Shown here in pieces: positions 1 through 55,953 of a stretch of DNA of 64,000 bases. Each line of letters opens with the position of its first letter. The first letter of the stretch is position 1. Made by a program: the position numbers and the translations under genes. The DNA comes from Cyanidioschyzon merolae (lineage: Eukaryota), in the NCBI GenBank assembly GCA_000091205.1, contig AP006491.2, one strand, 5' to 3'. The notes under the pieces were generated by a model. It did no database searches. It was not told the DNA's origin and saw only the letters and a program-made list of their open reading frames with translations.

Positions 1-1780
1 GCCTCCCGAGCAGCGCAACCTTATTTTTCTGCACGCCGTTCAGGACGACGAGATTCGTAGCAAGAGCGCTGGGGCTCGACCGCCGGTTCGCAAGGGCCTC
101 TTCTAAGGATCGCACAGGCCAACCGCTATCCTAGGATCGCTTTCGTCGAGGTGCACAGCATCGCGGATCATTCGAGTGGCTGCAGCGTCGTTCGTGGAGC
201 GGCAGCAGGCGGCGCATGCGCGCAGCGAGGCGTTCCACTCACAAAGTGGTGCGTTCTGGAATACCTATACCAGCATGAACGTTATGATTTTGTTTTGGTT
301 TTCTCGTAGGCATTCAGAAATAGGAATGGAGCGCGTGGCTTCGAGAAAGATCGCGGTAAAGCTTCATGCTGTGACTGCTAGCTTGCGAATAACGGCATGA
401 ATTCTGCAAGTTCGTCATTCTTTAGTCAGTGGATGGATGCGCCATCGCTTCACTAGTCCGTATTTCGAACATTGTGCACCAAAAGCAGAAGTTCTCAAAG
501 CATACTTACACGACTACCTCCTCGCGAATCCATTCGACTCTGTCCGTCTTATCCGGAATACTACAAATGAAGTCGTAGGATTTGAAGTTTTCGTATCGTT
601 CAGACAAACGGTGATGACGAGATGCAGATGGACAATGTGAAAGACGCCATCACCAAGATTGAAGCACCCAGAATTGGATGCCATGAACAGCAGCCGAACG
701 CTACGCTCTGCAGCGTACTCAATGACCGCTTTTGCGTGATGAAAAGCGATGTTGTCTAAGGGCCGGAAAAGAGATTTTGGGAAGCAGCAGCCGCTGCATG
801 CCTCATCGAAGAATGAGGTGATGAGTGATTCCCTCCGTTCGGCGCGTTCTAGGCGGCGAAACGATCGCGTCGCAACCAGTGCTGACGTTGGCGCCACTCC
901 CGCTGGCCTCCTCTAAAAGAGCAGCGTTCAGCAGCTCTCTGAGTAGCGAATAATCCTGTACCATTTCTTCCAAATGAAGTCTTATCGAGTGAGGCGAGCA
1001 CCCGTTTTTCCTGGAGTAAGCGTCCGCGTTACATGACGAAACCGACAGTATGTTGTTCAACGCATGAGGGTCCCCCGTAGACGCGTGCTGCTTCATTCGT
1101 TCATCCGTGTTACTTGACCACCGTTCGGCTCGAGGGTACGGGAACTTCATATCACGAGGATTGTGCAGAAGTTTTTATTAGAAAACGTGTGCGTTGGAAT
1201 CAAATTGACATCGTGACAGTCTTTTGTATATAGTTTGATAAATACTGATTTTGGGGTGCACGAGGTTCACGATGAGGACTAGAAGAGCGGCGATTCATCC
1301 AGCCGCTGGCCCAAGGAATCGCTTGGATTCGTAAGGCGGCTTTTGCGTAAGCTAGCGGTGACAGCATATAAATGGTCTTCCCGGGCAATGCTCTCGTCCA
1401 CGAACAAGACTCGTTGTCGAATACCTGCAAGAAAAATAAACAAAAACAAAAAGAGAGTGCTTCTGCAAGTGTTCCAGAAGTAACTGCTTCGAGTTATACG
1501 AGCTTGGCTGAGCCCTGAGCAGGGCCAACAGCAGCGCTGTCGTGCGCTAGCGGCGGCACTTTTCGGCGCAGAAGTGCCGGCAGCCGTCGAGCCTGCGCTG
1601 CTGGCCGCTAAAGGAGAGTGTTATGGAGCGGACAGGTTGCCAAAGGGTCCGTGCGAGCCGCGACGCACCTGCCTTCGCACACTCCTTCTCCCGGGTGTTC
1701 CAGGTGCGGACGAAAAAAAGTCAGATCGGTAGTTTTGCAGCTTCGGAGGTATGCATGTTGAGTGTGGGTGGCAACAAGAA

Positions 1781-1884
1781 AGCCCTGTCCGCGATTCGAA
1801 CGAGATCCCTCGGAGGGTTCGGCTGTTCCGAGTCGGGACCTTCTGTTTACAAGACAGATGCTCTAACCGCTGAGCTAACAGGGC
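1781..1884 (-). tRNA. tRNA-Thr, anticodon UGU, with a 31-nt insertion (1803..1833) in the T-stem; possibly a non-canonical intron
   Basis: Reverse complement is GCCCTGTTAGCTCAGCGGTTAGAGCATCTGTCTTGTAAACAGAAGGTCCCG[ACTCGGAACAGCCGAACCCTCCGAGGGATCT]CGTTCGAATCGCGGACAGGGCT. Removing the bracketed 31 nt gives a 73-nt cloverleaf: a 7-bp acceptor stem, a 4-bp D stem, a 5-bp anticodon stem TCTGT/ACAGA, loop CTTGTAA (U33, UGU, A37), T-stem CCGCG/CGCGG, T-loop TTCGAAT, and discriminator U. The inserted segment contains its own hairpin CTCGGA/TCCGAG. Confidence 0.6.
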
Positions 1885-1941
1885 GGTAGTGAAATCGTTC
1901 GCAATTCCGCATATAAAGACCAAAATCCCGGTCGATGAGCA

Positions 1942-2855
1942 GATTTCAACTCAAATGCGTTCCGCATCTCGGTGCGTGTCATTGAACGCTTTTCCGTAGT
2001 GTATAGCAGGAGCTGGAAATCACGATACAATATACCCCATATTTCGTGGACGAACGGCCTTTAGGATGTATTCTTTACCGAGGAGTGCAAGGAGGATAGC
2101 ATGCGTCCTTCAGGTCAGTTATTGCCCAGTACTCAGATGGTGAAGAACCCTGAAAGAAAGCAGGATACGCGCTCCGCGCCAAAAACCGATATGCTCACAG
2201 CGTGCTTGTGGTAAATAGTAGGAAACGAGTCGTTGATCACTGTGTAAGGTAAGCAAAGGCGGCGATAGCGGCCGCCACGTGCGTCTGTGTCGCTCAACAG
2301 CTTATTCGTGTGGTCCTGAAAACACTGGTATACAGGCGCAAAAACGTTGTAGTTTACGAACGGTCATCTTCCATCGAAATCGCACCTACAACGTTCCGAG
2401 AACGTTGCGATGAGTATGGAGCGCAGGGGCGTCGATATGTTTTTTTTCAGTCGATGAGGCCTTCTTCGGATGAATCGGTCGGGGTGTATATGGGTATTCG
2501 CGGGGTAGGCAGCCCGTTCTACGAAAGATCGAACCCGAGGTGAACGACGACATCATCATCATTATCTGCTCCAGCTGCAGTGGGTTCATTTGACGGCCTC
2601 AGTTTCGCTCGTCGAGAAGGCTGATACCACAGCATCGATCACTTTGTCGAATCATTAAAGACTTTTCCCTGGAGTCTCGCGACGTTCCTCAATTGGTAAA
2701 CGTGGTATTTCATCATTCCCGTTGCGTTCGAGCTTTTGCCGATTCTATCGCAGTAGAGCTGTTTATCATTCCTGCATGTTTTACTTGGTTCAAGCCCATT
2801 AAAAAGAATGTTTTCTATTGTGGAACTTGATGCTCGCTTCACCGGGCGAATTTGT
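1942..2855 (+). repeat. Dispersed repeat family 'R2', copy 1 (about 0.9 kb, non-coding)
   Basis: About 70% DNA identity to 11452..12345 over its whole length. Shared blocks include agcaggag..aaatcacgat, gcgctccgcgccaaaaa, gtgtgRtcctgaaaMcactgg, catcttccatcgaaatcgca and cagtttcgctcgtSgagaaggYtgataccacagca. Short ORFs on both strands are conserved equally, which argues for conservation at the DNA level. Confidence 0.65.
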
Positions 2856-2919
2856 CTGTTTGATAGAACGTTTACGCTGTACTTGGGATCTAGATTGCGC
2901 GATGGATATACGCTTTCGG

Positions 2920-3522
2920 GAAAGCGTCCATAACGCTCCACCTACCTCCAAGTTCCATTACTCATACCTCTTCTTGGATACACTGGTCACTTCGCACGTT
3001 CTTTCGCACTCCGAGTGCCCGCCCTGATCGTCCGCGATAGCGCTTATACCGCTGGTGCGGGTACAGCACAGAGTCAGAACGGCTTTGCCATACCACTGAG
3101 GATATCGGACCGAGGAATGCTTCACCTGACACGGAGTCGGGGCTCATAATCAATCTAGGAACGAGCAAGTTGTGCTGATAGCCTTACTGCTCGCAACAGC
3201 GCGATGCGATGTTACAGGAGCCCACTGTAACCAGGATGACCTCAGGACGCATTATACGCGCTCCGGGTCTAAGGATAAACTGCGTTTCGGACGAGTTTCT
3301 GCTCAGATCTCGCCACAGCACCCGCCAATCTGGAGAGCATAAAGCACGAACCTTGCAGACTCGTCCACATCGCGGGACCTTACGCCTAGAAGGTGAACTT
3401 TCGACCGTTCGGAAAGCTTTCCCCCTTCAATGCTTACCGTTCGAGGGGGAAAGAAATTGTTATCTCGTTGCTAGTTCGCGGCTCGTTTCTGTACTCTTTT
3501 TTCTGCGTTACGCTCGATCACA
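2920..3522 (+). repeat. Dispersed repeat family 'R4', copy 1, containing a conserved hairpin
   Basis: Collinear similarity to 20120..20735 (cgtccgcgatagcgcYtata.., gccataccaSWgag, cgaggaatg, ..cgcctagaMgKtRaactttcg..). Hairpin at about 3416..3460 is ctttccccct-[17 nt]-agggggaaag. The homologous hairpin in copy 2 has a 7-bp stem tttcccc/ggggaaa with a similar loop, a compensatory change that preserves the stem. Confidence 0.65.
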
Positions 3523-10754: not shown

Positions 10755-11138
10755 CTAGCTCCAAGCGCCGTTCCATGTGCTCAGCAAAATGGAAAACGTG
10801 TCGCGATCATACGGTAAATGAATACCGATGTGGAGGCGGATTCTAGTCGTTTTCGACCGGCCCATTGCTATCGACTTCAGCTTATCTTTGCATTCATCGA
10901 GTCTGAGAGGTTGCCCCACAAAGTTCGCTCGTGTTTGTTCCTCGGGCCTCGTCTTGAACACCGCACATCTCCTGGTATTGATGGTAGGGTTAAAGTCTTG
11001 GTTTACGAACTGCATGCATTCAATGACGCTTATTGATCGCACCGGTGCAAAGAGTCCTCGAACCGGTATCCTCTGTGCCACGACACTCTCGTTATTGTCC
11101 CGTCGGCAAAGCACCTCTTCTCGCGTATCTCCCCTCAT
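10755..11138 (-). mobile_element. 3' fragment of the TnpB/Fanzor-like element family (RuvC-III region only)
   Basis: Translation FVNQDFNPTINTRRCAVFKTRPEEQTRANFVGQPLRLDECKDKLKSIAMGRSKTTRIRLH aligns with the C-terminus of the ORF at 23135..24133 (FVNRDFNAVINLRRCAVLEKRSPDSTRGNFVGQPIQVELYEKKLEAVVSGWSIETGRRLY) and with the copy at 45.6-45.9 kb. Confidence 0.5.
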
Positions 11139-12345: not shown

Positions 12346-12899
12346 GAGGGTGTCACCTTACAGTGAAACCGGTGCATTTTTTCGTCTTTCTTATGCAAAT
12401 CCTAGTCCCTCCGTGTAGGTCCTCACACAACGGCATCAACAATTGCTTTCATTTTAAAAAATAAGGAATGAGCATGAATGCACAATTCAGGAGATCGGAA
12501 TGCAGAAAAGCCAGCGGAGCGCTGACAGAGCAGCAAATGATACTGAGAGCGCGAGTTCGAGGACTCCTTGCACTAATGAGTTCAGAAAACGCCTAGAAAT
12601 GGAGGGAGGTAGCGAACCGAGACTTTAACACCGCCACTAATATCAGGACATGTGCGATGCTGACGACGATACCCGAGATGCTGAGGCGATCTAGTTTTGT
12701 GAGACAGCCTCTCAGGGTTAGAGCGTACAAGGAGAAGCGAAAACCGATAGCAAGCGGCTGGTCAAGAAACGTCGGGAGGCACCTGCGAGTGGGTAGATAT
12801 ACTTACTCTCTATCATTGTGAAGCGTTTTTTTGTTTCACTGACGATCTCTGCACATCATTCACCCATATAAGAATCAAATCGAACGGGTCTGCGGACAC

Positions 12900-20119: not shown

Positions 20120-20735
20120 TAACCGCGCGTTGTGGGGTTTCCATCGTTCCGCGCCCTCCTCGCAAGTTCCGCTTCCCATACGTTCCCTCGGAGGTACCGA
20201 TTATTTTCAAGTTCGACCGTGTGCCGACTGCCCGTCGCGAGCGTCCGCGATAGCGCCTATAGCGGCGGCGCGGTCGTAGCATAGACAGAGAGAACCGACA
20301 TGCCATACCAGAGAGCGCATCGACTCGAGGAATGTCACGGCTGAGTCACGGTCGAGGTTCATGATCATTCTGGGAGCCTGCAAGCTGCGCTGGCAGACCT
20401 ACTGCCTGCGACAGCGCGAATCGATATCCTAGGAGTCCACTGCGACCAGGGCGACGCCCAGATGCAGCTTAACTGTCCCTAGTCCCAGAATGAATTGCTT
20501 TGTGGACGAGTAGCACAGGTTTCTTTCAAGAACGCGCCGCTGGGAGGGGCATGAAGCACGAGCCTGGCAGACTCGTTCGGCTCGCGCTACTTTCCGCCTA
20601 GACGTTAAACTTTCGGAAATACGGAAAAAATTTTCCCCTTTTAATGTTTAATGTAGACGGGGAAAGAAATCGATAGCTCGTTGCTCGTGACTCGTGAGTC
20701 TCTTTCCTTTTTTTTCTAAATAGCGCGGTTGAGAC
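20120..20735 (+). repeat. Dispersed repeat family 'R4', copy 2, immediately 5' of the Fanzor-like element
   Basis: Collinear with 2920..3522. Conserved hairpin at about 20626..20670 (tttcccc-[20 nt]-ggggaaa). Confidence 0.65.
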
Positions 20736-21017
20736 GCGCAATTCAGAGATCTGGCAGTCATGAGATATGACGCGCTTGTCGCCGTTGAAGGGAGACACGA
20801 TCCAAACCTTTATGATCCAGCAGTAAAGTAAAAGTTCTATTTCCGTTGAAGTCGTAGCAAACTGCAGTTTTCAGTTGAATCGTGTTTCAACCCTCAAATA
20901 AGTGTATTCAAGTCCTTTTTCGCGGTTTATAGGAGAAGCGTTCAAAGAGCGCCCTTTTTCAAAAAAAATAAAAAAGGAAATGTTATCAAAAACCAAGTCG
21001 ACGATCCTGGAGGCCAA

Positions 21018-21359
21018 GTGTCGCTGGCTGCCAGAAAAAACAAAAAACAGTACCGAGTCCAGAAGAAAAGAAAGAGAAGAAGGACCGAAAGGAGGGAGGT
21101 CCTACGTCGAAGGCTGCAAGAAAGACCACACTACAACGAACTGGTTATGAAAGCCTGTCTTCTTGAACAGATCAAGGTTCCGTGCAAGAAAAAGTTACGA
21201 GAGTCCATTCGAAACCGTTTTGAGCCGAACTCCATGACTATAATACAGGTGTCGTCAGGACTAATGCATTTGGCGGGGGAGATGTATCGCGAAGTGACGC
21301 ACATGGAAACGGTCCAGCTTCCGAACGAGTTTTCGACGAGACCTTTATTCGTCACATGA
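21018..21359 (+). CDS. Element ORF1: basic, NLS-like protein (KKRKRRRTERR). Its TGA stop overlaps the ATG of the nuclease ORF (ATGA)
   Basis: The ORF is conserved in copy C (44013..44501, MHIAKEMYRNVTHMETVEVPDEF..) and copy B (33303..33581, minus strand). The start codon is uncertain: the track start is GTG, and a further ORF at 20902..21150 in another frame may belong to the same protein. The ATGA overlap is present in both copy A and copy C. Confidence 0.4.
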   Translation: MSLAARKNKKQYRVQKKRKRRRTERREVLRRRLQERPHYNELVMKACLLEQIKVPCKKKLRESIRNRFEPNSMTIIQVSSGLMHLAGEMYREVTHMETVQLPNEFSTRPLFVT

Positions 21360-24133
21360 CGATTGGTACAGCGGAAGCGCGGAGGGAAAATGAACGCGTG
21401 CACGTCCTGCACGAAAAACACCTCTTTTACAGCTTCGAGGGTACTCGGTATACAGGTGACGCGGATATTTACATGTACGGGGCGATGAAGTACCTGACGA
21501 ACCTGAAGAACCATGTGACGATGAACCTCGAACGTTTCATGATACGCGCCGTGTTTGCGCTGTACCCGGGAATCTCACGCAAGGGGATATGGGCGATTAT
21601 CAATGGCGCCACGAACGATCGCAGGCATGAAGATGAGGTCGAATTTGTCGAGAAGAAGGCGTCAAACGAGAGCACGAATGAAGCTTCTGTAATCCGTGCG
21701 GCTATGCAAGAGCACGGCGCAGTCATGGGGCTACCGAATCCAACAGAAAAGATGTCAGAGTTAAAAAAAGATAAGGAAAGGTACTATCGCCTCATCCTGC
21801 GCTATTTTGTGTTTCTGAATCGTGAACTCGAACGCAAGGCGGAGATGAAGCTGAGTGAAGAGACAAATGAAGAGTGGGAGAGACGGAAGGCTTTCCTAAT
21901 GGGGAAGCAGTTAAACGTGGTTCCGTTGTGCAACATCAAGTAGTATTTTGTGAGTATCGATTCAGGCGTCCTTTACGGCATCATGAAGGAGATCAGTCCG
22001 GGGTTCAATGTTAGCAGGGAGGACTTCATCGGTGAAAACCGGGAGACGTACTGGAAGAGTATCTTCGATTTCAAACGTCTCAAAGTCAGCAAACAAAAGT
22101 TATTCACTGGGATGATCGAAACCGATGGCGTAGCCATGTGTGCACACTATCGGCGGTTGAAGAAAGAGTGTCCAGTTCCACCCTCGGCTGCACCCGTGAC
22201 GAAGGATGAAGAAAACAAAGAAGAGGATCCTGCGATGCAGGAGGTGGAGGATAACGACTTTGTCGTTGACATTACGAAGGATGAAGATGAGAAGACGGCG
22301 GATCCTGCGACGCAGGAGGTGCAGGATAACGGCTTTATCATTGGCGCGGCGAAGCATGAAGAAAACAAAGAAGAGGATCCTGCGACTCAGGAGGTAGAGA
22401 ATAACGACCTTGTTGTTGACATTACGAAGGATGAAGATGAGAAGACGGCGGATCCTGCGACGCAGGAGGTGCAGGATAACGGCTTTATCATTGGCGCGGC
22501 GAAGCATGAAGAAAACAAAGAAGAGGATCCTGCGACTCAGGAGGTAGAGAATAACGACCTTGTTGTTGACATTACGAAGGATGAAGATGAGAAGACGGCG
22601 GATCCTGCGACGCAGGAGGTGCAGGATAACGGCTTTATCATTGGCGCGGCGAAGCATGAAGAAAACAAAGAAGAGGATCCTGCGACTCAGGAGGTAGAGA
22701 ATAACGACCTTGTTGTTGACATTACGAAGGATGAAGATGAGAAGACGGCGGATCCTGCGACGCAGGAGGTGCAGGATAACGGCTTTATCATTGGCGCGGC
22801 GAAGCATGAAGAAAACAAAGAAGAGGATCCTGCGACTCAGGAGGTAGAGAATAACGACCTTGTTGTTGACATTACGAAGGATGAAGATGAGAAGACGGCG
22901 GATCCTGTGATGCAGGAGGTGCAAGATAACGACCTTGTCGTTGACGCGACGAAGCATGAAGAAAACAAAGAAGAGGATCCTGCGACTCAGGAGGTAGAGA
23001 ATAACGACCTTGTTGTTGACATTACGAAGGATGAAGATGAGAAGACGGCGGATCCTGTGATGCAGGAGGTGCAAGATAACGACCTTGTCGTTGACGCGAC
23101 GAAGCATTAAGAAAACAAGAAGGCGGATCCTGCGATGCAGAATGTGCAGGATAACGACTTTGTCGTTGGCGCGGACCCTGGGAATACGAATATCATAACC
23201 ATCGCTGTACCCAAGCGTGCGGAAGATGGTACTGAAGGTAATTTACGTCAGAAAGACATGCGTCTTTTGAGATTCTCGAGGGCAAGATATTACCGAGAAT
23301 CCGGTATAATGAATGCGAGGAAGAAAATCGAGACTTGGAATTCAGGAATGAAAGAGCGCCTGGAAGCTTTGAGCGAGGTGACGAGCCGCGGAGCGGATTA
23401 TGAAGCTTTTCGGAGATTCATGGAAGTTCGTGTTGCCCATTGGGATGCGCTGTGGAAGGAGTATACAAAGCCCAGTTGGGCTCGTCTGCGAATGAATCTG
23501 TACGGTGTGAAGCAGCGGGCGTTTGCGAATTTTTTCAATCAGTTGAGCGCCCTGAAGGAGGATGAAAGTCAGAGGCTCGTAGTAGCATACGGAGCAGGGC
23601 GATGGAAGACCCAAAAAGGGACTACGCCAGCTCCAACGACAAGAACGTATAAGGAGTGCGCACGGCGTTTTGCCTCGATACCTATAGACGAGTTTCAAAC
23701 ATCGTATACACACCATGAACTGAGGTGCACACTCCAGAGGGCCGAGATGGAAAAGTGCCAGACGAACCCTGAGGATATGAAAAAGTACGGACCGCTGACG
23801 GAAGAGCAAATGGAAAGGAGGACGAAAGTTCGAAGATTATTTGTATTAGTAAGTACAACCGATGACGGCAAGAAACGCATGGAATTCGTGAACCGTGACT
23901 TTAACGCCGTTATCAATCTAAGGAGATGTGCGGTGCTGGAGAAAAGATCTCCAGATTCGACAAGAGGGAACTTTGTTGGACAACCTATCCAAGTCGAACT
24001 ATATGAGAAAAAGTTGGAAGCAGTAGTGAGTGGCTGGTCCATAGAGACGGGGAGGCGTCTGTACGTCAGTTGGAGACTTCTTGTCAAGGGCGGGTTTCTC
24101 GCCACTACTGTACACTGCTGTCGTTCGACTTAG
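21356..24133 (+). pseudogene. TnpB/Fanzor-like RuvC-nuclease ORF (about 925 codons) interrupted by two in-frame stops (TAG 21941..21943, TAA 23108..23110)
   Basis: A single reading frame runs across 21356..21943, 21950..23110 and 23135..24133. RuvC-I-like motif: NDFVVGADPGNTNIITIAV. TnpB 'YTSQ'-like motif: IPIDEFQTSYTHHELRC. RuvC-III-like motif: FVNRDFNAVINLRRCAV (the D-x-NAA-x-NI pattern of TnpB/Cas12/Fanzor). The TAA lies where every other repeat unit has GAA. Confidence 0.65.
22230..23107 (+). repeat. In-frame tandem repeat, 75-bp unit (25 aa), two alternating subtypes forming a 150-bp higher-order repeat, about 11.7 units
   Basis: Units DPA(M/T)QEV(E/Q)DND(F/L)VVDITKDEDEKTA alternate with DPATQEVQDNGFIIGAAKHEENKEE. 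The unit resembles the sequence just before RuvC-I (MQNVQDNDFVVGADPG). This periodicity generates the long antisense ORF at 22100..23107. Confidence 0.85.
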
Positions 24134-24249
24134 AACGGCGGTGGTGGCTTGTCCATTAGCACGCGTCAACGCAGACTTAGGTGCCCGACGCTTCTTGGAT
24201 ACGCGCGCCGCCTGTAATGAACTGAGGAAACACCAGCAGCACTGGCGTC

Positions 24250-32425: not shown

Positions 32426-32857
32426 GTGAATGAGGCCTGGATAGACCACGGGACAGAGCTGCATGAAGACGCAACTGGGCACTGCCAAGACCCAATCTAT
32501 TGGCACCAGTATGCCGCAGAACTACCGCGCCTCGAACCGGTACCGGAATGGAACGACCCAATCTTCTGGCCTGAATCTGTTCGGGCCCTGTTAAGCTCAT
32601 GCAACCGCAAAACACCTGGCATTGACGGTATCGCTGCCGAGTGGATGAAACTGGTGATCCCAAAATACGAGACAACAGGGACACCATCGATACCACGCCT
32701 CAAGTCGACGCCCGTTGTGGTACGGCAACGCCGTTCTGTCTCCGTGCAGCGACCGCACCGGCGCTATAGGCGCTATTGCTGTCGCTTTCGGCAGGCACTA
32801 GGCACACACGATAGGACGTATGAAACGACCAGAATATCCGAGATGAAGTATAGGTAA
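32426..32857 (+). pseudogene. Fragment of a reverse transcriptase from a non-LTR (LINE-like) retrotransposon (N-terminal RT motif only)
   Basis: ..VRALLSSCNRKTPGIDGIAAEWMKLV.. matches the conserved K-x-PGPDGI motif at the N-terminal boundary of the RT domain. No further RT motifs follow, so the copy is truncated or degenerate. Confidence 0.4.
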
Positions 32858-32965
32858 TGTACCATGGAGGTAGGTGTAGATCGATGGATACTTCACCGCG
32901 CACTGAAAAAACACACACAAAAAAAAGTAAGAAAAGAAAAATGCGCAGAATCGGAGAACGCTGGC

Positions 32966-33760
32966 CTAAGTAAACGTTTTGTGAGTGGAAAAAAATTTGA
33001 TAATCGCCCATATCCCCTTGCGTGAGATTCCCGGGTACAGCGCAAACACGGCGCGTATCATGAAACGTTCGAGGTTCATCGTCACATGGTTCTTCAGGTT
33101 CGTCAGGTACTTGATGGCCCCGTATTCGTAAATATCCGCGTCACCTGTATACCGAGTACCATCGAAGCTGTAAAAGAGATGTTTTTCGTGGAGGACGTGC
33201 ACGCGTTCATTTTCCCTCCGCGCTTCCGCTGTACCAAGCATCAGGTGACGAATAAAGGTCTCGTCGAAAACTCGTTCGGAAGCTGGACCGTTTCCATGTG
33301 CGTCATTTCGGGATACATCTCCCCGCCAAATGCACTAGTCCTGACGACACCTGTATTATAGTCATGGAGTTCGGCTCAAAACGGTTTCGAATGGACTCTC
33401 GTAACTTTTTCTTGCACGGAACCTTGATCTGTCCAAGAAGACAGGCTTTCATAACCAGTTCGTTGTAGTGTGGTCTTTCTTGCAGCCATCGACGTAGGAC
33501 CTCCCTCCTTTCGGTCCTTCTTCTCTTCCTTTTCTTCTGGACTCGGTACTGTTTTTTGTTTTTTCTGGCAGCCAGCGACACCTAGGCCACCAGGATCCTC
33601 CACTTAATTCCCCATAGGTTTCCTACTTTATTTTTTTGAAAAGGAACGCTCTTTGAACGCTTATGTCATATAATGGGAAAAACACTTGAATACACTTGTT
33701 TGAGGTTTGAAACACGAATGAACTGAAAACTATGCTTTGCTACGACTACATCGCAAATCC
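32966..33760 (-). mobile_element. TnpB/Fanzor-like element, copy B: a 5' fragment (ORF1 plus the N-terminus of the nuclease ORF), then truncated
   Basis: ORFs at 33303..33581 (MSLAARKNKKQYRVQKKRKRRRTERREVLRRW..) and 32966..33241 (MLGTAEARRENERVHVLHEKHLF..ISRKGIWAII) are over 90% identical to copy A. The 5' leader matches copy A at 20850-20990. Homology ends after GIWAII. Confidence 0.65.
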
Positions 33761-34899
33761 AACTTGTTCGTTGGATCTACACACTCTATCTCGCCATGCG
33801 ATGCCGTTGTCATCCGTTCGACAAGGCCCCCAGCCACAGTGAACGCGCCTAATCTGGAGTCTCATGTCCCCCTAACAAGAAAACGTATTGTCAAGCTCGC
33901 GTTTCCCTTCAACGGCTACATTCGCGCCGTATCTCGTGACGGCCTGATCGCCCAGGTGCGCGTATCGAGTGCGCCACACAGAAAAAAGAACAGAGACTCT
34001 CGATTCACGAGCATGTAGATTTTGTTTTCCCTTTCGACGATAAACTTTGAAAGGAGAGAAAGCTTTCCGTATTTTAGAAACTTTACCTTTTACGCGTAAG
34101 ATCCCTAGAACTGTAAGAGTCTGCTAAGCTGGTGCTCGGTGTTCATCTAAAGTGGCTGGAGCAGCCGCGAGACCTGAGCAACTCGTCCCCAGAGCGGTTT
34201 ATTCCGGGACCAGGGGTGCTTAGGCAGCGTCTGCACGCCGCCCTGGTCGCAGCGTATCCAGTGGTAAGCCTAGACTGTTCTGTCTACGTGCCATGACCGC
34301 AGCGGCGCAATGGGGGCTACGGCGGGTGCTCACGGCATGCATTCGACACGCGATAGGGCGTGCGAAAGGACAATTATATCCGAGAAGAAGAATGGCTAAT
34401 GGAACGTGAAAGTAGAGTGCAACATGGTGGACGCTTTCCCCGAAGTCGCTGGCGGCGCGTCTCCATTCCATGCGAAAGTGCTGCACCGAGTTACTGGTAT
34501 CGATGACCCGAGTTCGATTAAACTTGAACAGTATATTGCTCGCCCTCTTCCTGCTTTTCGAATTTTAAAACTTTATTCCGATGGAAAGCCGCGGCATTCG
34601 AAAAGGGGCTATTGTGACTTACGCATTCTAACGAATATGCGGATCCTCGGCAGCGTTTTTGGAATGGCCTCCTCAACGCGTTACCACGGGAACTCTTTCA
34701 GTTCCGGGACGCGAGCTCATTTGCGAGACCCCCCGAGCGAGACTTCTTAAAATACCCGATACGATGATCCACCGCATACGCCCAAGTCTCCAAGCTTCCC
34801 TTTTTCTCACGATAAGTATGCTTCAACCATAAATGTTTCAAGGCGACCCGTTGACGCAGCAATGCACGTCACTAGATTGATGAGCAGAAAAATTCGACT

Positions 34900-38362: not shown

Positions 38363-39449
38363 GATCGAGTAGGATGACGAGGTCAGGACCCGTCTCGATG
38401 CTCTGGGTTCCTTTCCGATGAATGAGGACATTTTCTGCGCCTTATTTCGAGCGAATATTAGCGTCCAACTAGCGAAATCGGACAATCTCCGGCTGGAGTG
38501 CATGACATCGTGCACGGGACGCCAACGGTATCCGCAGTGCAGAGACAACAAGCGTGGATTCAAGTGTCTGCTCAATATGTAGGAAATAGAAATGACGAAC
38601 ATGACGTGTCGTTTGGTCGAGGCCCCTGGCTCTGGAGGTGCTGCAACGCGCTGAACCTGCACTTTTGCTCCGTCGACCAGCGCGCACAAAGTGAGCAGGA
38701 ACTGAATCTTTCCATCTCCCATCGATGCAATCCAGACGATTTGAGCGCATCACGAGCACAAGGGCACGTTGAGCGTGCTAGACGACAACAGCAACATCGT
38801 GAAGCAATGACGAATGCACCAGATGATGGAAAGTTAGTTGACCATCCGTTTATGGCGAGGCAGTCGGGGGCAAGAGACTTGCGATGATATGACTCTCCGC
38901 GCAACAGTACGCGCCATGACTTGATGCATCGTGACAGGAAGGCTCCCATCACGAGCGAGGGATGTCTCGTGCTTCCCGGGCGGACGTCCGTCGGCTCGGT
39001 ATCCAGCGAGCTTTCGCAGGAATCGTTTCGTACCAAGCGTGTGCGTTGTGCTGCGATGCGGAAGACTTGCGCTCACGAAATCAGTGCCTGGGAGAGGGTC
39101 ATAGATTCCCGTCTGGCTCAAGGCCCTGGCATGATACGGGGTCACCAATGCGGCAAGGCTGGTACGTTCTATGCATACATCGGGAACGGTTTCCCAGGTA
39201 ATCGGTGAACAAGAATGGTGCCATATCATTCAGTAGTACTGAATATTGGTATATATAGGCAGAACGTTTCACCGTAAACCTCTGATGGATTCCTAAAGCA
39301 ACGTCAGACTGAATCGGATCGGGTCCGTTCAGATAACCCGAGTGTTTACGCTCAACATGAGGGTCTCTTCTCCTTGTCATCAACATGAGCGTTTTGCGCG
39401 CTTCCACTGCGAATGCTTCCTTTTTCTCTCGCTTATATGCGGTTTTCAG

Positions 39450-43341: not shown

Positions 43342-43964
43342 CTCCGTCGTGCCTGTGCAGCTACTGAAAGCTGATAAGCACAGGACAAAAGTTCAGAGGC
43401 TACAAACACGTCTTTGCATCCACGTCCGAGCACACATTCGTCAGGGACGCTGCAAAATAGACCCCCGATGGATCCGCCTCCGATGCCGGGGAGTGTAGGC
43501 CCCGGTGCGCTTCGACGGCCTTGTTTCGTTGTTCGCAGCCGCAGCTCGATGCGCGATCTCCGGCGGATGCGCGCCTGCCGTGGACGTAACGGTCGCGCGA
43601 TGCTACTGGGCCTTGCATCGCATACGACTCAAATGTACAGAAATGTTCAAATTGATACGGCGATCGTTACGAGCGCGTGTGCGTGCGATTTGGCTGTGAT
43701 GGAAAAACGTGTCCATGGACTGTGGATGGCCCAAATTGCGGGATAGGTGAGCATTGACATTCGGGAAAGCGTCCATCATGCTGCGCAATACTCACGCCCA
43801 AGTTCTATTACCTATGCTTCCTATTTTCTATATGGTGCGCTTGATATTTGCACCTCCAGATCTGACATGCATTGAACACGTCGCGCATGTCGCCGCTTTA
43901 GGGAAACGCGATACTGATCATCAGCGTGACGCTCGAACGAACAAGTTGTATTTGCGTCAAATTC

Positions 43965-45941
43965 GTACCAAAGTAGAGTGTTTATCCCAATCGTGTTTCA
44001 ACCATCAAGTACGTGTATTCAAGTGGTTATTTGCAGTTTGTATCAGAAGCGTTCAAAGAGCGATATAAAAAAATCAAAAAATGGAAAGTTTCGGAAGAGG
44101 AAGAGGAGGATCCTGGAGGCGGAGTATCACCGGCTGGCAGAAAAAAACAAAAGACAGTGCAGAGCGAAGAAGAACAGGAAAAGACGAAGAAGCAAAAAGG
44201 AGAGGCTCTACCTCAAATGCTGGAAGAAAGACGACGGTGTGACGAGATGGTAGTGAAAGCCTGTCTTCGTAAACAGAACAAAGATCCGTACAAGCAGGCG
44301 TTGCGGGAGGCCATTAGAAACCGTGTTGAGTCGTACTGTAGGAGTATTCGTAACGCTTCTTTTGGACATATGCATATAGCGAAGGAGATGTATCGTAACG
44401 TGACGCACATGGAAACAGTCGAGGTTCCGGATGAATTTTTCAACGAGAACTTATTCGTCGCTTGCTGGTTGGCACAGGGGAAGCTTCGACGAAAACAATG
44501 AGCGAGTGCATGCTCTCCACGAACATTGCGCCGAATTTCGCTTCAGCGATACTCGATACAAGGATGTCCGGCATATTTACACCTACGAGCCGATGTAGTA
44601 CCCGACGAACCTGAGGAACCATTTGACCAAGAACCTCAAACGCTTCGTGATACGCTCCATCTTTGCACTATACCCGGGCCTCTCTCGCAAAGTGATTGAG
44701 GATCATAGTCGATGGCATCGTTAACGATAGTAAGAATGAAGAGGAGAACGAATTCGTTGAGAAGAAGACATTACACAGGGGACAGAATGAAGCTTCTGGA
44801 ATCCGTGCGGCTATTCAAGAGCACCGTGTGGTCGTGGGCCTGTTCAACCCAGCAGAAATGGTATCCGATATGGAATAAGATTAAGAAAGATGCTATCCCC
44901 TAATCCTGCGGTTTTTCGTGTTTTTGGACCGAGAACTCGAACGTAAGGCGGAGATGGAGCTGGGTGTCGTAAAATGAAGAGTCGGAGAAACGGAAGGCTG
45001 CCCTAATGGGAACGCGCTTCAACGGCGTTCCATTGTGGAACATCAAGTCGCACATTGTGACCATCAACTCCAGAGTCCTTCACAGCTTAATGAAAGAGGT
45101 CACCCCAGTGTTCGATGTCCATGAGGAGGAGTTCAGCAAAGTGACAAGCCGCGGAGCGGACTTTCGAGCCTTCCGGGAATTCATGGAAGCTCAGGCTGCT
45201 CATGACTGCGAGATGTGGAAATGGTCCGGAAAGCCCCGGAGGGCCCGTCAGCATGTGAACCTGTATTGTGGCAAACAGCGTGCATTCACCAACTTCTTCA
45301 ATCAGTTGAGCGTCCTCAAGGTGGTCAAGAGTCAAAGGATTGTAATATCGTACGGAGCAGGGCGCTTTGTACCCGGAAGACGGAGCGCACCCGCTCCATC
45401 GACACGAGCGAACAAGGAGTGCGCATACCTGTTTATTCCATTTCCGATAGATGAGTTCCGAACGTCCTATGTGCACCATGAGCTGAGATGTGCATTCCAG
45501 AGAATCGAGTTGGAGAAGTGTCAGCAGAGCCCTGAGCAAATAGAAAAATACTGTGCGCTAACGGAAGTGCAAATGGAAAGGAGGGCGAAAGTTCGACGGC
45601 TACTCGCATTAGAGAGTACAATCAACGGCAAGAAACGTACGGAGTTTGTGAATCGTCAATTTCACGCTGTTATCACAATAATGAGATGTGCGGTGCTGGA
45701 GACGAGACCCGAGGAGTTGACGCGAACCATCTCTGTGGGGCAGCTCCTCAAGGTCGCATTGTACGGAGAGAAGTTGAAACCAGTAGTTGCAGGCCGGTCA
45801 AAAAAGGCTGGGAGGCGTCTGCACGTCGGTGGGAGACGTATTGTCTACGTCGGGCGGTTTGCAGCTCGCCACCACAGTACACCCGTTATGCAGCGTACGC
45901 CGACTGAAACGCAATCGCTTCTTTGTCACACAATTTTGTAA
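43965..45941 (+). mobile_element. TnpB/Fanzor-like element, copy C: a degenerate copy lacking the RuvC-I and tandem-repeat region
   Basis: ORF1 homolog 44013..44501. The nuclease-ORF homolog 45006..45941 jumps from ..VHEEEF directly to SKVTSRGADFRAF (equal to copy A at about 23380), a deletion of roughly 1.35 kb. It keeps IDEFRTSYVHHELRC, but RuvC-III has degenerated to FVNRQFHAVITIMRCAV. It also carries extra stops and frameshifts. Confidence 0.65.
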
Positions 45942-53499: not shown

Positions 53500-55953
53500 G
53501 TCCAGTGAATGCAATGTATCCTGTGGATCGAAGAAAGGTCCTGGAGAGACTCTATGCTGTAACTGCTTGCTTGAGAAAAAGGCGACCGTACCCGTCCAGC
53601 GTAGCCATTCTACGCTCATCGTAGGGATTAACTGGCCTCCTCGTTCTCCGCAAGACGAGCGCCGTGCGCCCGAAACAGTACGTGTCACTCTCTATCGATA
53701 TGACGGTTTTATGGTCGATCCATTCCATACTGTCTCTAAAAGATATAATTGAAGTAGCCGCATGGTCTGAAGCTACCGTGCTGTTGATGCGTCCGGTGAC
53801 CAGGAGACAGCAACGGACCGAGAAGGAAGCACGCTTCTGCGAGAGACCTTCGCACATGAGATGCCACACACTTGACTCTGGTAGTGCGCTGCGAACGCTG
53901 GGTACAGGGCCGACGGGTGTTCGTCTCACACGCTGAGACTGCATTCGTGAGAAACGGTAGACCTGTATATACGTACTCAGAAATGAGCAGGCCGTCGTTT
54001 CTAAAGTAGAGACAAATGAGCGTTCCGAAAACATCATCTCCAGCGGCGATGCAGTCTTGTAGTCGCCTGCGAATCCCAAACCGAATAGAATCGCATAGCA
54101 CTTGAGCTTTCATCGAAACGCTTTGCGGCTCCTGCTTCCCACATGCTTCCGTCCTGTTATTAGAAAACGTCGCTTCCCATGACTCAAGAGCTATCAAATA
54201 GAGCGCTGCTGCTTCTGGCGTTCATCTGGTCTCCGTACCGGCCTCGGCTCAGTGGTTCAGTCTAGCCGAAGGCATCCTCTCGGCAGGCAAACGCCATGTT
54301 CATGATCGTAGAACAGTCGCTAAGTCGTTCGTGTCCACGATATCCCTCTTGGACAACTCGCTGCAAGCCTTCACCAGCGGGTGAGCTGCTGCTTTGCTTC
54401 TCTGTCAGTGCGCGGGAGGGAGCGGAAAGCCGCGCTTCTGTCTAGAGATACGTTCGCGCCGAAGCAACCGACGAAAACGCACTCGAAGAACCGCAGAGAC
54501 GCACAGACGTAGGAACTGCGGGGTTCGGAAACCGCGTTTAGCCGGCGCGTCCTAGTCCTGAGGGAAAACTTGGATATAGATTCCAGCGAACACATGCATC
54601 CTCCATCGCCAAGTCCAAAACGAAGACGAAGAAACCACCAGACAAAGGAGAAGAAGACCCGCCCCTAAACGCGGACGCAATTCGACAAGAAAGGAAACGT
54701 TCGGGGCGCGATGGTTAGTCTGAAGCGGTTGTCAGCGCCATCCTCCAACATAAAACACGAACGGGGAGTATCCTGCGAAAAGTGACATGCAGGAGTCCAT
54801 CAGGGGTCGCTTGACGCACCTCGTCGAGCACTTGCTCCCAGAAGTGGTGGACGCCGGGCTTCCAGCCGTCCATATTCTTCGCGAATTCTTGAGCCAATGC
54901 TTCGTGCAACTACACAGCTGTGATGCTGCTGAGAAGATACAAAACGGCATGAATTGCCAGGATTCCATGGTATCGGCAGTCAGGCATCATGAACGCTACG
55001 AGGCACACCAACAACTGGAATGATATCATCAGGACCGAACTTGACCTTCTGAAATACGTATCGAGCTGGGAGCTATGCCCTGTACGCTTCACCGAGAGCG
55101 TCCATGGTCGTCCAGCTCGCTCATTAGGACAAAACTTGGCAGAATACATGAGAGCACGCTGGTGTCGCCAACAGTTCCGATTGCGTGGAAGCAAGAAGCA
55201 TGCATTCGTCAGCCTGAAGAATGAGCTCGAGACAGAAGCAAACGACACGTCGCGTCCTTTTTATTGGTATCCTACGGCGCTGGCGTACCGTACCGTCAAC
55301 GCTGCACGCGTGCACCGTCGACCAGACCATGCAACGAGTGCAGGAATCAATTCAACGGATTCCCGTCGATGCACTCAGGACGGTACCACCGCATCATGAG
55401 CATGGATTCACGCTAATTCATGCACAAAAGAGAAATCTGAAACGGAAACGAATGCATGAGATGGTGTACGCTACGCTGATCCAACACCAGACGGCGATGC
55501 AATGGTGTATCGAAGCGTCTGGCGATGGGTTGCGTTCCACGAGCGGGGACGCGCAGGCACCTGCTGCACTCAAACTCGAACGCTTCGATCCTCATCCTGA
55601 ACGATTTCGCAATGCCTTAGCACCCAAAGGCTTTGGGTCTAGCCAACTTTCAAGATCTTGGTTTAGGATTCTCAGTAGGCATTGTGTTGCTACGCGGAAG
55701 ACTGGTGATGAAAAGAATACTGGGGCCAGGAAACAGGGTATTCGACGCTCGCCTGGATCCGGGTACTGGTGTGTGGTAGCGCTCAGCCAGCGCGAAACAC
55801 CGCAGCGGCATACGTACATCGACACGGGAAACAATTTTCCTGGGCAATCGATGAACGACCATGATGTTCCATGAGTCCACGGTACCGAGTATACCACGCT
55901 TCGACCTGGTCAACGCATCTCTCTGCCCTGGAAAGCATTCCCATGGAATACGA

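Follow-up and report, generated by a model that had tools for sequence, protein, structure and literature searches.

Does the genome of Cyanidioschyzon merolae, an alga of acid springs at 42-45 °C, carry a family of TnpB- or Fanzor-like RuvC nucleases, and if so, which one? The question is raised by a 64,000-nt stretch of contig AP006491.2 (assembly GCA_000091205.1; hereafter the window, meaning this whole stretch), in which an open reading frame (ORF) of 332 amino acids ending at position 24133 resembles the C-terminal part of such an enzyme. A sequence-only reading of the window, made without database searches, had proposed a multi-copy family of this kind within a eukaryotic gene neighbourhood. 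The analysis described here supports that proposal and makes it more precise, because profile matches to the Protein Data Bank (PDB), the predicted structure of an intact relative (P0136) and a published consensus all identify the family as Fanzor1. Window positions 20140..~24150 very probably hold a degenerate copy, here called copy A, of CMe-1A, a Fanzor1-carrying repeat family of C. merolae. CMe-1A, together with its host, copy number and Fanzor1 assignment, has been known since 2013, and the rearranged catalytic glutamate discussed below has been known since 2023.

The only Fanzor1 family listed for C. merolae by Bao & Jurka (Mob DNA 2013; PMC3627910) is CMe-1A, which is described as a 3169-bp consensus with ~150 copies that encodes a 734-aa Fanzor1 protein, CMe-1. 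Its copies are ~80% identical to the ~3-kb consensus and some are still intact; the element has no terminal inverted repeats (TIRs), its target-site duplications (TSDs) were not determined, and its 5' 635 bp constitute a second repeat, TE-N2_CMe, with ~70 copies (PMC3627910). The consensus and the CMe-1 protein sequence were taken from the supplements of that article and aligned to the window with blastn and tblastn, respectively. Consensus positions 70-3145 match window positions 20140-24123 at 83-90% identity. The CMe-1 protein matches copy A at 78-84% identity over residues 114-734 and at 53% identity over residues 1-116, which are frameshifted in this copy.

The assignment to Fanzor1 is also reached by homology searches. 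Hot-spring metagenomes contain more than 240 close relatives of the 332-aa C-terminal ORF, at 65-97% identity, and a repaired full-length query retrieves intact proteins of ~700 aa (P0135-P0139) at 32-39% identity. An exhaustive profile search returns 3341 cluster representatives at E<=1e-3, including 426 at E<=1e-30. Searching the PDB by phmmer with the 332-aa ORF alone gives only noise, and a family profile is required to find the known structures. The top PDB matches of a 15-sequence profile are SpuFz1 (8GKH, E=7.8e-4) and GtFz1 (9CER, E=0.007), in an alignment that spans the WED strands and the DPG, DE[FY]xTS, [RH]GLL and NRD motifs. A profile built from 89 sequences (alignment A2) and run against all PDB sequences matches PpFz1 (2.5e-22), SpuFz1 (6.5e-16) and GtFz1 (2.9e-11) but no protein of another family.

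Structure prediction agrees with the profile searches. The AlphaFold2 model of the intact relative P0136, computed with the 89-sequence alignment, has a predicted local distance difference test score (pLDDT) of 89.4 and a predicted template-modelling score (pTM) of 0.87; it replaces a run with the 15-sequence alignment that reached a pLDDT of 52 and was unusable. The sequence-only reading had suggested comparing the structure with SpuFz1, and in a Foldseek search of the PDB with the P0136 model ranks 1-7 are all Fanzor1 structures, with E-values from 4.9e-18 to 3.6e-16, 678-807 aligned columns and TM scores of 0.53-0.74 (target-normalised up to 0.74). Cas12f, Cas12o, Cas12h and Fanzor2 structures follow behind with E-values of 1e-4 or weaker and TM scores near 0.2. 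The model can be superimposed along its entire length on SpuFz1, PpFz1 and GtFz1. The sole precomputed Pfam label on the family (carried by P0192-P0338) is a weak match to PF26935, or DUF8286, which is annotated as being of 'unknown function'; the present evidence links DUF8286 to Fanzor1.

Two observations speak against this assignment and need to be set beside it. The modelled protein is P0136, which is 37-47% identical to the window copy in tblastn segments, and not the window protein itself. In addition, Pfam scans of the window ORFs, of close homologues and of intact distant relatives gave no significant match, so the comparison with OrfB_IS605 and OrfB_Zn_ribbon proposed by the sequence-only reading is negative; the best score among the relatives is 18.5 bits for PF07282 (Cas12f1-like_TNB), against a cut-off of 26.3. 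The Pfam result is no evidence against homology: it is explained by the loss of the zinc ribbon from the clade and by divergence beyond the reach of these models, and the OrfB_Zn_ribbon and Cas12f1-like_TNB models miss the relatives because the CxxC pairs are absent. A reading based on motifs only can recognize correctly a Fanzor that Pfam misses.

The motifs on which the sequence-only reading relied are all present in the ORF at 23135..24133. The RuvC-I motif NDFVVGADPGNTNIITIAV includes GADPG at 23168..23182, with the Asp codon at 23174-23176. The motif IPIDEFQTSYTHHELRC includes IDEFQTS at 23684..23704, with the codon for an alternative glutamate (Ealt) at 23690-23692. The RuvC-III motif FVNRDFNAVINLRRCAV includes (FV)NRDFNAV at 23891..23911, with the Asp codon at 23897-23899. 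The canonical RuvC-II site of copy A is occupied by a glycine in VVAYGAG (23579-23599), and the glutamate of IDEFQTS lies ~37 residues downstream. Across the 89 relatives in alignment A2, the G and Asp of DPG, the Gly of AYG and the Glu of DEF are invariant, and conservation is at least 90% for the P of DPG and for both the R and the Asp of NRD.

This arrangement is the one described for Fanzors, in which the canonical RuvC-II position is occupied by an inert Gly or Pro and an alternative glutamate follows after ~45 residues, with the zinc finger six residues further on (PMC10530073, PMC10711439). Fanzors are marked by the combination of DPG and Ealt (PMC10711439). They require the rearranged glutamate for cleavage, with mutation of Ealt abolishing it in ApmFz2 (PMC10530073), and the extremely conserved G and E of Fanzor1 were noted earlier by Bao & Jurka (PMC3627910). 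The absence of a RuvC-II glutamate had been taken as a hint of a possible catalytically altered or rearranged variant. The glycine in VVAYGAG is indeed there, but it does not set this family apart: the glutamate is found in IDEFQTS, as in all Fanzors, and its apparent absence is the known Fanzor rearrangement, which is normal for the family and defines no variant.

The C4 zinc finger, by contrast with the catalytic residues, is missing. All solved structures of Fanzor and TnpB have, to our knowledge, a zinc finger. SpuFz1 and ISDra2 TnpB both contain one of the CCCC type in the NUC/TNB domain (PMC10432273), and the Fanzor1 motif defined by Bao & Jurka includes a C4 (CxxC...CxxC) zinc finger (PMC3627910). 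Between the TS motif and RD, the window copy contains no CxxC and reads TSYTHHELRC...RRLFVLVST instead. Nor is a CxxC found in the ~50-residue segment from Ealt to the RuvC-III Asp in 47 of the 51 full-length relatives that have both flanking motifs. Most relatives retain one Cys at most, in RGLLWC, where C. merolae has RGLLAL. Since the authors who defined the family list CMe-1 as a Fanzor1, a C4 finger is in practice typical of Fanzor1 and not required for it.

In view of the absence of this CCCC zinc finger from the clade, nuclease activity should not be assumed for its members, which is a consideration against regarding them as working enzymes. With this caution, we propose tentatively that the C. 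merolae family is part of a large zinc-finger-less clade of Fanzor1, mostly metagenomic and labelled as DUF8286, whose members may still be active ωRNA-guided nucleases; we hold this to be a real possibility and not the expected outcome. If it were true, Fanzors could function without the CCCC zinc ribbon, and intact copies from this alga together with the ~100-nt 3' module described below would offer a compact, possibly heat-tolerant editor scaffold.

How else might these observations be explained? The family could have descended from Fanzor1 and kept the binding of a guide RNA while losing the ability to cut DNA. Such a catalytically altered protein would accord with the glycine at the canonical RuvC-II position and with the loss of the zinc finger from nearly all full-length relatives (47/51). 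However, the canonical glutamate is normally absent from all active Fanzors, and it is Ealt whose mutation abolishes cleavage by ApmFz2 (PMC10530073). The Glu of DEF-x-TS and the Asp residues of DPG and NRD are invariant or nearly so in 89 diverged relatives, which argues for selection on catalysis, and we therefore regard a loss of cutting as unlikely. That the window copy itself serves the host as a functional or domesticated gene, with expression by read-through or splicing, is far less probable. Long open stretches do remain in copy A and its three catalytic residues are intact, but its start codon is lost, its frame is shifted, two in-frame stops interrupt it and its native stop is gone, and at 83-90% identity to the consensus it resembles the other old copies. 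Its ORFs are also missing from the protein collection in which the neighbouring C. merolae genes are found.

An assignment to prokaryotic TnpB (IS200/IS605 or IS607) or to Fanzor2 in place of Fanzor1 might draw on the RuvC motifs that are common to TnpB and on the weak, sub-threshold PF07282 (Cas12f1-like_TNB) matches of some relatives. It is highly improbable given that no TnpB chain appears in the PDB sequence search and that the Fanzor2 protein ApmFz2 (9b0l) is found by Foldseek only at rank 17 (E=5e-3, TM ~0.2), compared with 5e-18 and TM scores of 0.64-0.74 for Fanzor1. A ~730-aa protein with a large REC is moreover typical of Fanzor1, no recombinase gene is adjacent, and the element sits between red-algal nuclear genes. 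A chance resemblance of motifs in an unrelated repeat, for which the silence of Pfam could be cited, has a negligible probability: it is refuted by profile E-values down to 1e-22 against Fanzor1, by structural agreement over the full length and by the match to a published Fanzor1 family. Fanzor1 is thus the assignment used in what follows.

Copy A itself is a nearly full-length pseudogene at 20140..24150 (+), delimited by blastn of the consensus and, for its 3' end, by comparison with metagenome copies. The bounds of 20850-24135 given by the sequence-only reading were too narrow, as the element starts at or before 20140 and ends near 24150. Two blastn segments cover most of the element on the plus strand: consensus positions 70-2190 at 20140-22268 (82.6%) and 2122-3145 at 23100-24123 (89.6%), with positions 2117-2196 repeated ~13 times in between. 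The 5' non-coding part, 20140..20711 (+), corresponds to the TE-N2_CMe unit (consensus positions 70-641, blastn). It is followed at 20985..22267 (+) by the N-terminal 428 residues of Fanzor1, comprising a basic N-terminus that resembles a nuclear localization signal (NLS) and the REC and WED regions, as mapped by tblastn of CMe-1. The C-terminal ORF with the RuvC domain, 23135..24133 (+), was delimited from the ORF list, tblastn, codon reading and alignment A2.

The coding region of copy A is broken in several ways. Three open stretches share one frame (21356..21943, 21950..23110 and 23135..24133), and a basic ORF at 21018..21359 lies upstream in another frame. This upstream ORF had been interpreted as a separate NLS-like ORF1; alignment with P0135-P0139 shows that it is the N-terminus of the same protein, separated from the rest by a frameshift near 21323-21332 (~21.33 kb), and tblastn accordingly places CMe-1 residues 1-116 in frame 3 and residues 114-428 in frame 2. 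The frame from 21356 to 24133 contains exactly two internal stops, as had been stated, namely TAG (21941) and TAA (23108). Both the start codon (ATG to ATC) and the native stop near 24086 (TAG to AAG) are lost; therefore the last ORF extends 16 codons too far, to 24133. An exact look-up of the window Fanzor ORFs in the public protein collection found none, whereas the neighbouring C. merolae genes are present there.

Between the two blastn segments, Tandem Repeats Finder identifies an in-frame minisatellite at 22198..23168 (+). It spans ~970 bp with periods of 75 and 150 bp, corresponding to ~13 units of 75 bp or 6.5 units of 150 bp with 96% matches, and each unit maps to consensus positions 2117-2196 (blastn). 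The repeat codes for an acidic linker (…KHEENKEEDPATQEVENNDLVVD…) immediately before the first RuvC strand and includes the TAA at 23108. The consensus has one unit and copy A ~13, and the number also varies among the relatives P0002, P0006 and P0121. The 96% identity of the units points to a recent expansion inside an old pseudogene. With its start lost, a frameshift, two premature stops, its native stop lost and an expanded minisatellite, copy A is a dead pseudogene that is unable to make a Fanzor1 protein.

The 3' end of the element was studied using 80 related loci from hot-spring metagenomes, from which 41 distinct 3' ends were aligned. Conservation among them runs past the stop codon to '...GAA[AC]GGCGTT[T]GTTG[GT]TG' and is then lost. 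Several copies (L015, L016, L019, L045 and others) are still similar for 10-12 nt beyond the published consensus end, up to '...GGCGTT(T)GTTG(K)TGG'. For this reason the true right end probably lies a little further out than published (window ~24123-24150), with copy A ending near 24150. The last ~100 nt, conserved in 92 matches, form three recurrent hairpins in single-sequence folds, including a terminal hairpin of 9-10 bp. In copy A this conserved 3'-terminal module of three hairpins, a candidate ωRNA scaffold, occupies 24046..24142 (+), overlaps the last codons and is recognized by covariance model R1 with 100 bits (E=9.5e-23).

The candidate rests on a comparison with SpuFz1 and GtFz1, whose ωRNA is derived from the 3'-terminal part of their elements. 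This RNA can include the final codons of the ORF, and 14-15 nt of the adjoining flank are transcribed with it as the guide (PMC10432273). Two subfamilies differ in the terminal stem by two paired changes (CGTCGTTC/GAACGGCG versus CGTTTTTC/GAAAAGCG). In a model-fitted alignment of 71 distinct sequences, itself biased in favour of the structure, all but 1 of 500 shuffles are exceeded both in the percentage paired and in the number of double-change cells. Other tests give no such signal. In the same biased alignment the number of pairs with double changes does not stand out from the shuffles (77/500). The hand-defined three-hairpin structure, evaluated within one subfamily, has 86.8% pairing compared with 86.3% in shuffles and no excess of covariation, and RNAalifold applied to a plain MAFFT alignment of the 3' ends yields essentially no consensus structure. 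Since the covariation of the hairpins is weak, the ωRNA is treated here as inferred and unproven, which itself lowers confidence in this part of the reading, and its identity with the conserved, hairpin-rich ~100-nt 3' end is plausible by analogy. The region and the better delimited 3' end can nevertheless serve for tests of a Fanzor1 from a red-algal thermoacidophile.

The 3' module also occurs in the absence of a Fanzor ORF. Four such modules are located ~740-770 nt upstream of full copies in metagenome loci (L022:1229-1321, L050:1037-1122, L052:1526-1621 and L074:365-465). They are possibly non-autonomous 'ghost' units that carry the putative ωRNA end, and they recall what we take to be the comparable 'ghost' loci of S. 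punctatus.

Intact members of the family encode a ~730-aa protein with a basic N-terminus, REC, WED and a RuvC nuclease domain, whose active site consists of the Asp of DPG, the alternative Glu of DEF-x-TS and the Asp of NRD. The remainder of their mode of action can be proposed by analogy with SpuFz1, GtFz1 and PpFz1. The protein would bind an ωRNA for which the conserved 3' end, overlapping the last codons, is the template, with the flanking sequence just past the 3' end of the element as the guide. The complex would cut matching double-stranded DNA and the element might persist or spread in this way, the protein not being a transposase.

The composition of the element on its 5' side is variable. 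Most metagenome copies lack TE-N2 at this position and have either a different leader of ~700 nt or an adjoining, inverted TE-N2-like end, and the 5' junctions in L035, L042, L043 and L071, as well as in L012, L013, L022, L049 and others, place the start of the Fanzor unit at consensus position ~640-670. The unit is thus found in three upstream contexts, namely a direct TE-N2 (as in CMe-1A), an inverted TE-N2-like end and an unrelated ~700-nt leader, and CMe-1A as published may be a composite. P0136 lies directly downstream of, and on the same strand as, an ORF for a DDE_3 (Tc1/mariner-type) transposase in four independent metagenome contigs (L002-L005). Capture of Fanzor1 by mariner elements is known, and this arrangement agrees with it. 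Neither TIRs nor TSDs could be defined from the old copies. A Helitron or Replitron carrier, suggested by the 3' subterminal hairpin, was considered and rejected, as no Rep/Hel gene and no CTRR end was found; Replitrons are reported to be absent from red algae (PMC10288648).

Copy A is not the only remnant of the family nearby, and the window contains at least eight Fanzor-related pieces in total. Blastn of the region against the window finds related copies near 33 kb (minus strand), at 44-46 kb and at 11 kb, and both blastn and tblastn bear out the multi-copy nature claimed by the sequence-only reading. Copy C of CMe-1A, at 43698..45887 (+), covers consensus positions 2-115, 638-1950 and 2394-3138 (blastn, to 45883), is matched by tblastn in four frames and has an R1 match at 45806-45887. 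It has two internal deletions, of consensus positions 116-637 and 1951-2393, the second of which removes RuvC-I, in line with the earlier description of this copy. Copy B, at 32997..34440 (-), is a truncated 5' part of CMe-1A (consensus positions 61-1525; blastn, tblastn), and beside it lies an extra TE-N2-like 5'-end fragment at 32692..32888 (-) (positions 70-262; blastn). A solo TE-N2_CMe-like unit is found at 2861..3504 (+) (positions 4-641, 79.7%; blastn).

Older pieces are recognizable at the protein level. A C-terminal fragment of Fanzor1 at 10827..11090 (-) matches CMe-1 residues 640-728 at 51% identity (tblastn) and is part of an ORF at 10755..11138 that includes ...FVNQDFNPTINTRRCAV..., and a second old C-terminal fragment at 12479..12791 (+) matches residues 615-728 at ~52% (blastn, tblastn). 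A repeat search over 10.3-13.3 kb ruled out a recent inverted duplication as the origin of this pair. At 54935..55604 (+), tblastn with CMe-1, P0135 and P0136 found a heavily decayed relic whose Fanzor1 lineage is more distant. It contains the ORF fragments ...RWCRQQFRLRGSKKHAF... and MVSYGAGV...APSTR, and its segments are up to 37-44% identical to the P0135-P0139 clade and 25-31% identical to CMe-1. A further weak, old Fanzor1-like relic, at 38373..38936 (+), is 27-31% identical to P0135 and P0136 (tblastn E=1e-8). The relic at 54935-55604 and, more weakly, that at 38373-38936 suggest that C. merolae also contains another, older lineage of Fanzor1, whereas Bao & Jurka list one family only. 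The earlier inventory of copies was therefore right about copies A and C and the 5' and 3' fragments, and it missed the pieces at 2861..3504 and 12479..12791 and both relics. Its inclusion of a young copy did not hold: none is young, copy A is disrupted and 83-90% identical to the consensus, and a 92% match between copies A and B spans 770 bp only.

The genes around the element confirm its setting. The flanking ORFs are exact matches to the C. merolae 10D proteins BAM79981 (phosphoserine phosphatase), BAM79987 (methionyl-tRNA synthetase) and BAM79989, and the other neighbours are ordinary nuclear genes that encode ABC transporters, the 20-kDa subunit of NADH dehydrogenase, a dual-specificity phosphatase and an EF-G-like GTPase. 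This bears out the eukaryotic gene neighbourhood, which is that of a red-algal chromosome. An Rfam scan of the window finds no known RNA family at the Fanzor element. The sole Rfam match in the 64 kb is a tRNA gene at 1781-1884 (-), which at 104 nt compared with a 71-position model probably contains an intron.

Among known systems, the bacterial-type comparison proposed at the outset is the most distant. ISDra2 TnpB and the OrfB_IS605 and OrfB_Zn_ribbon families have in common with the CMe-1 family a distant RuvC core and the motif order D ... E ... TS ... RD. The CMe-1 family differs from ISDra2 TnpB in its rearranged glutamate, its much larger REC, and its lack of a zinc ribbon and of a TnpA partner. 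The likeness to SpuFz1 (8GKH/9CEU, from Spizellomyces punctatus), Parasitella parasitica Fz1 (PpFz1, 9CF0) and Guillardia theta Fz1 (GtFz1, 9CER) is much more extensive. It includes the common full-length fold of WED, REC and RuvC, the DPG, the alternative Glu in D-E-[FY]-x-T-S, the RuvC-III RD and the glycine at the canonical RuvC-II site, as well as a eukaryotic host, a multi-copy element and a conserved 3' end in the place where the ωRNA is encoded. The sequence identity to these proteins is only 12-15%, and the CMe-1A family differs from them in having neither the CCCC zinc finger nor inverted terminal repeats. The closest system is the published CMe-1A itself. Copy A departs from its consensus in being disrupted and in the expansion to 13 units of a 75-bp segment present only once in the consensus, and in all it represents the same element in the same organism, including the TE-N2_CMe unit.

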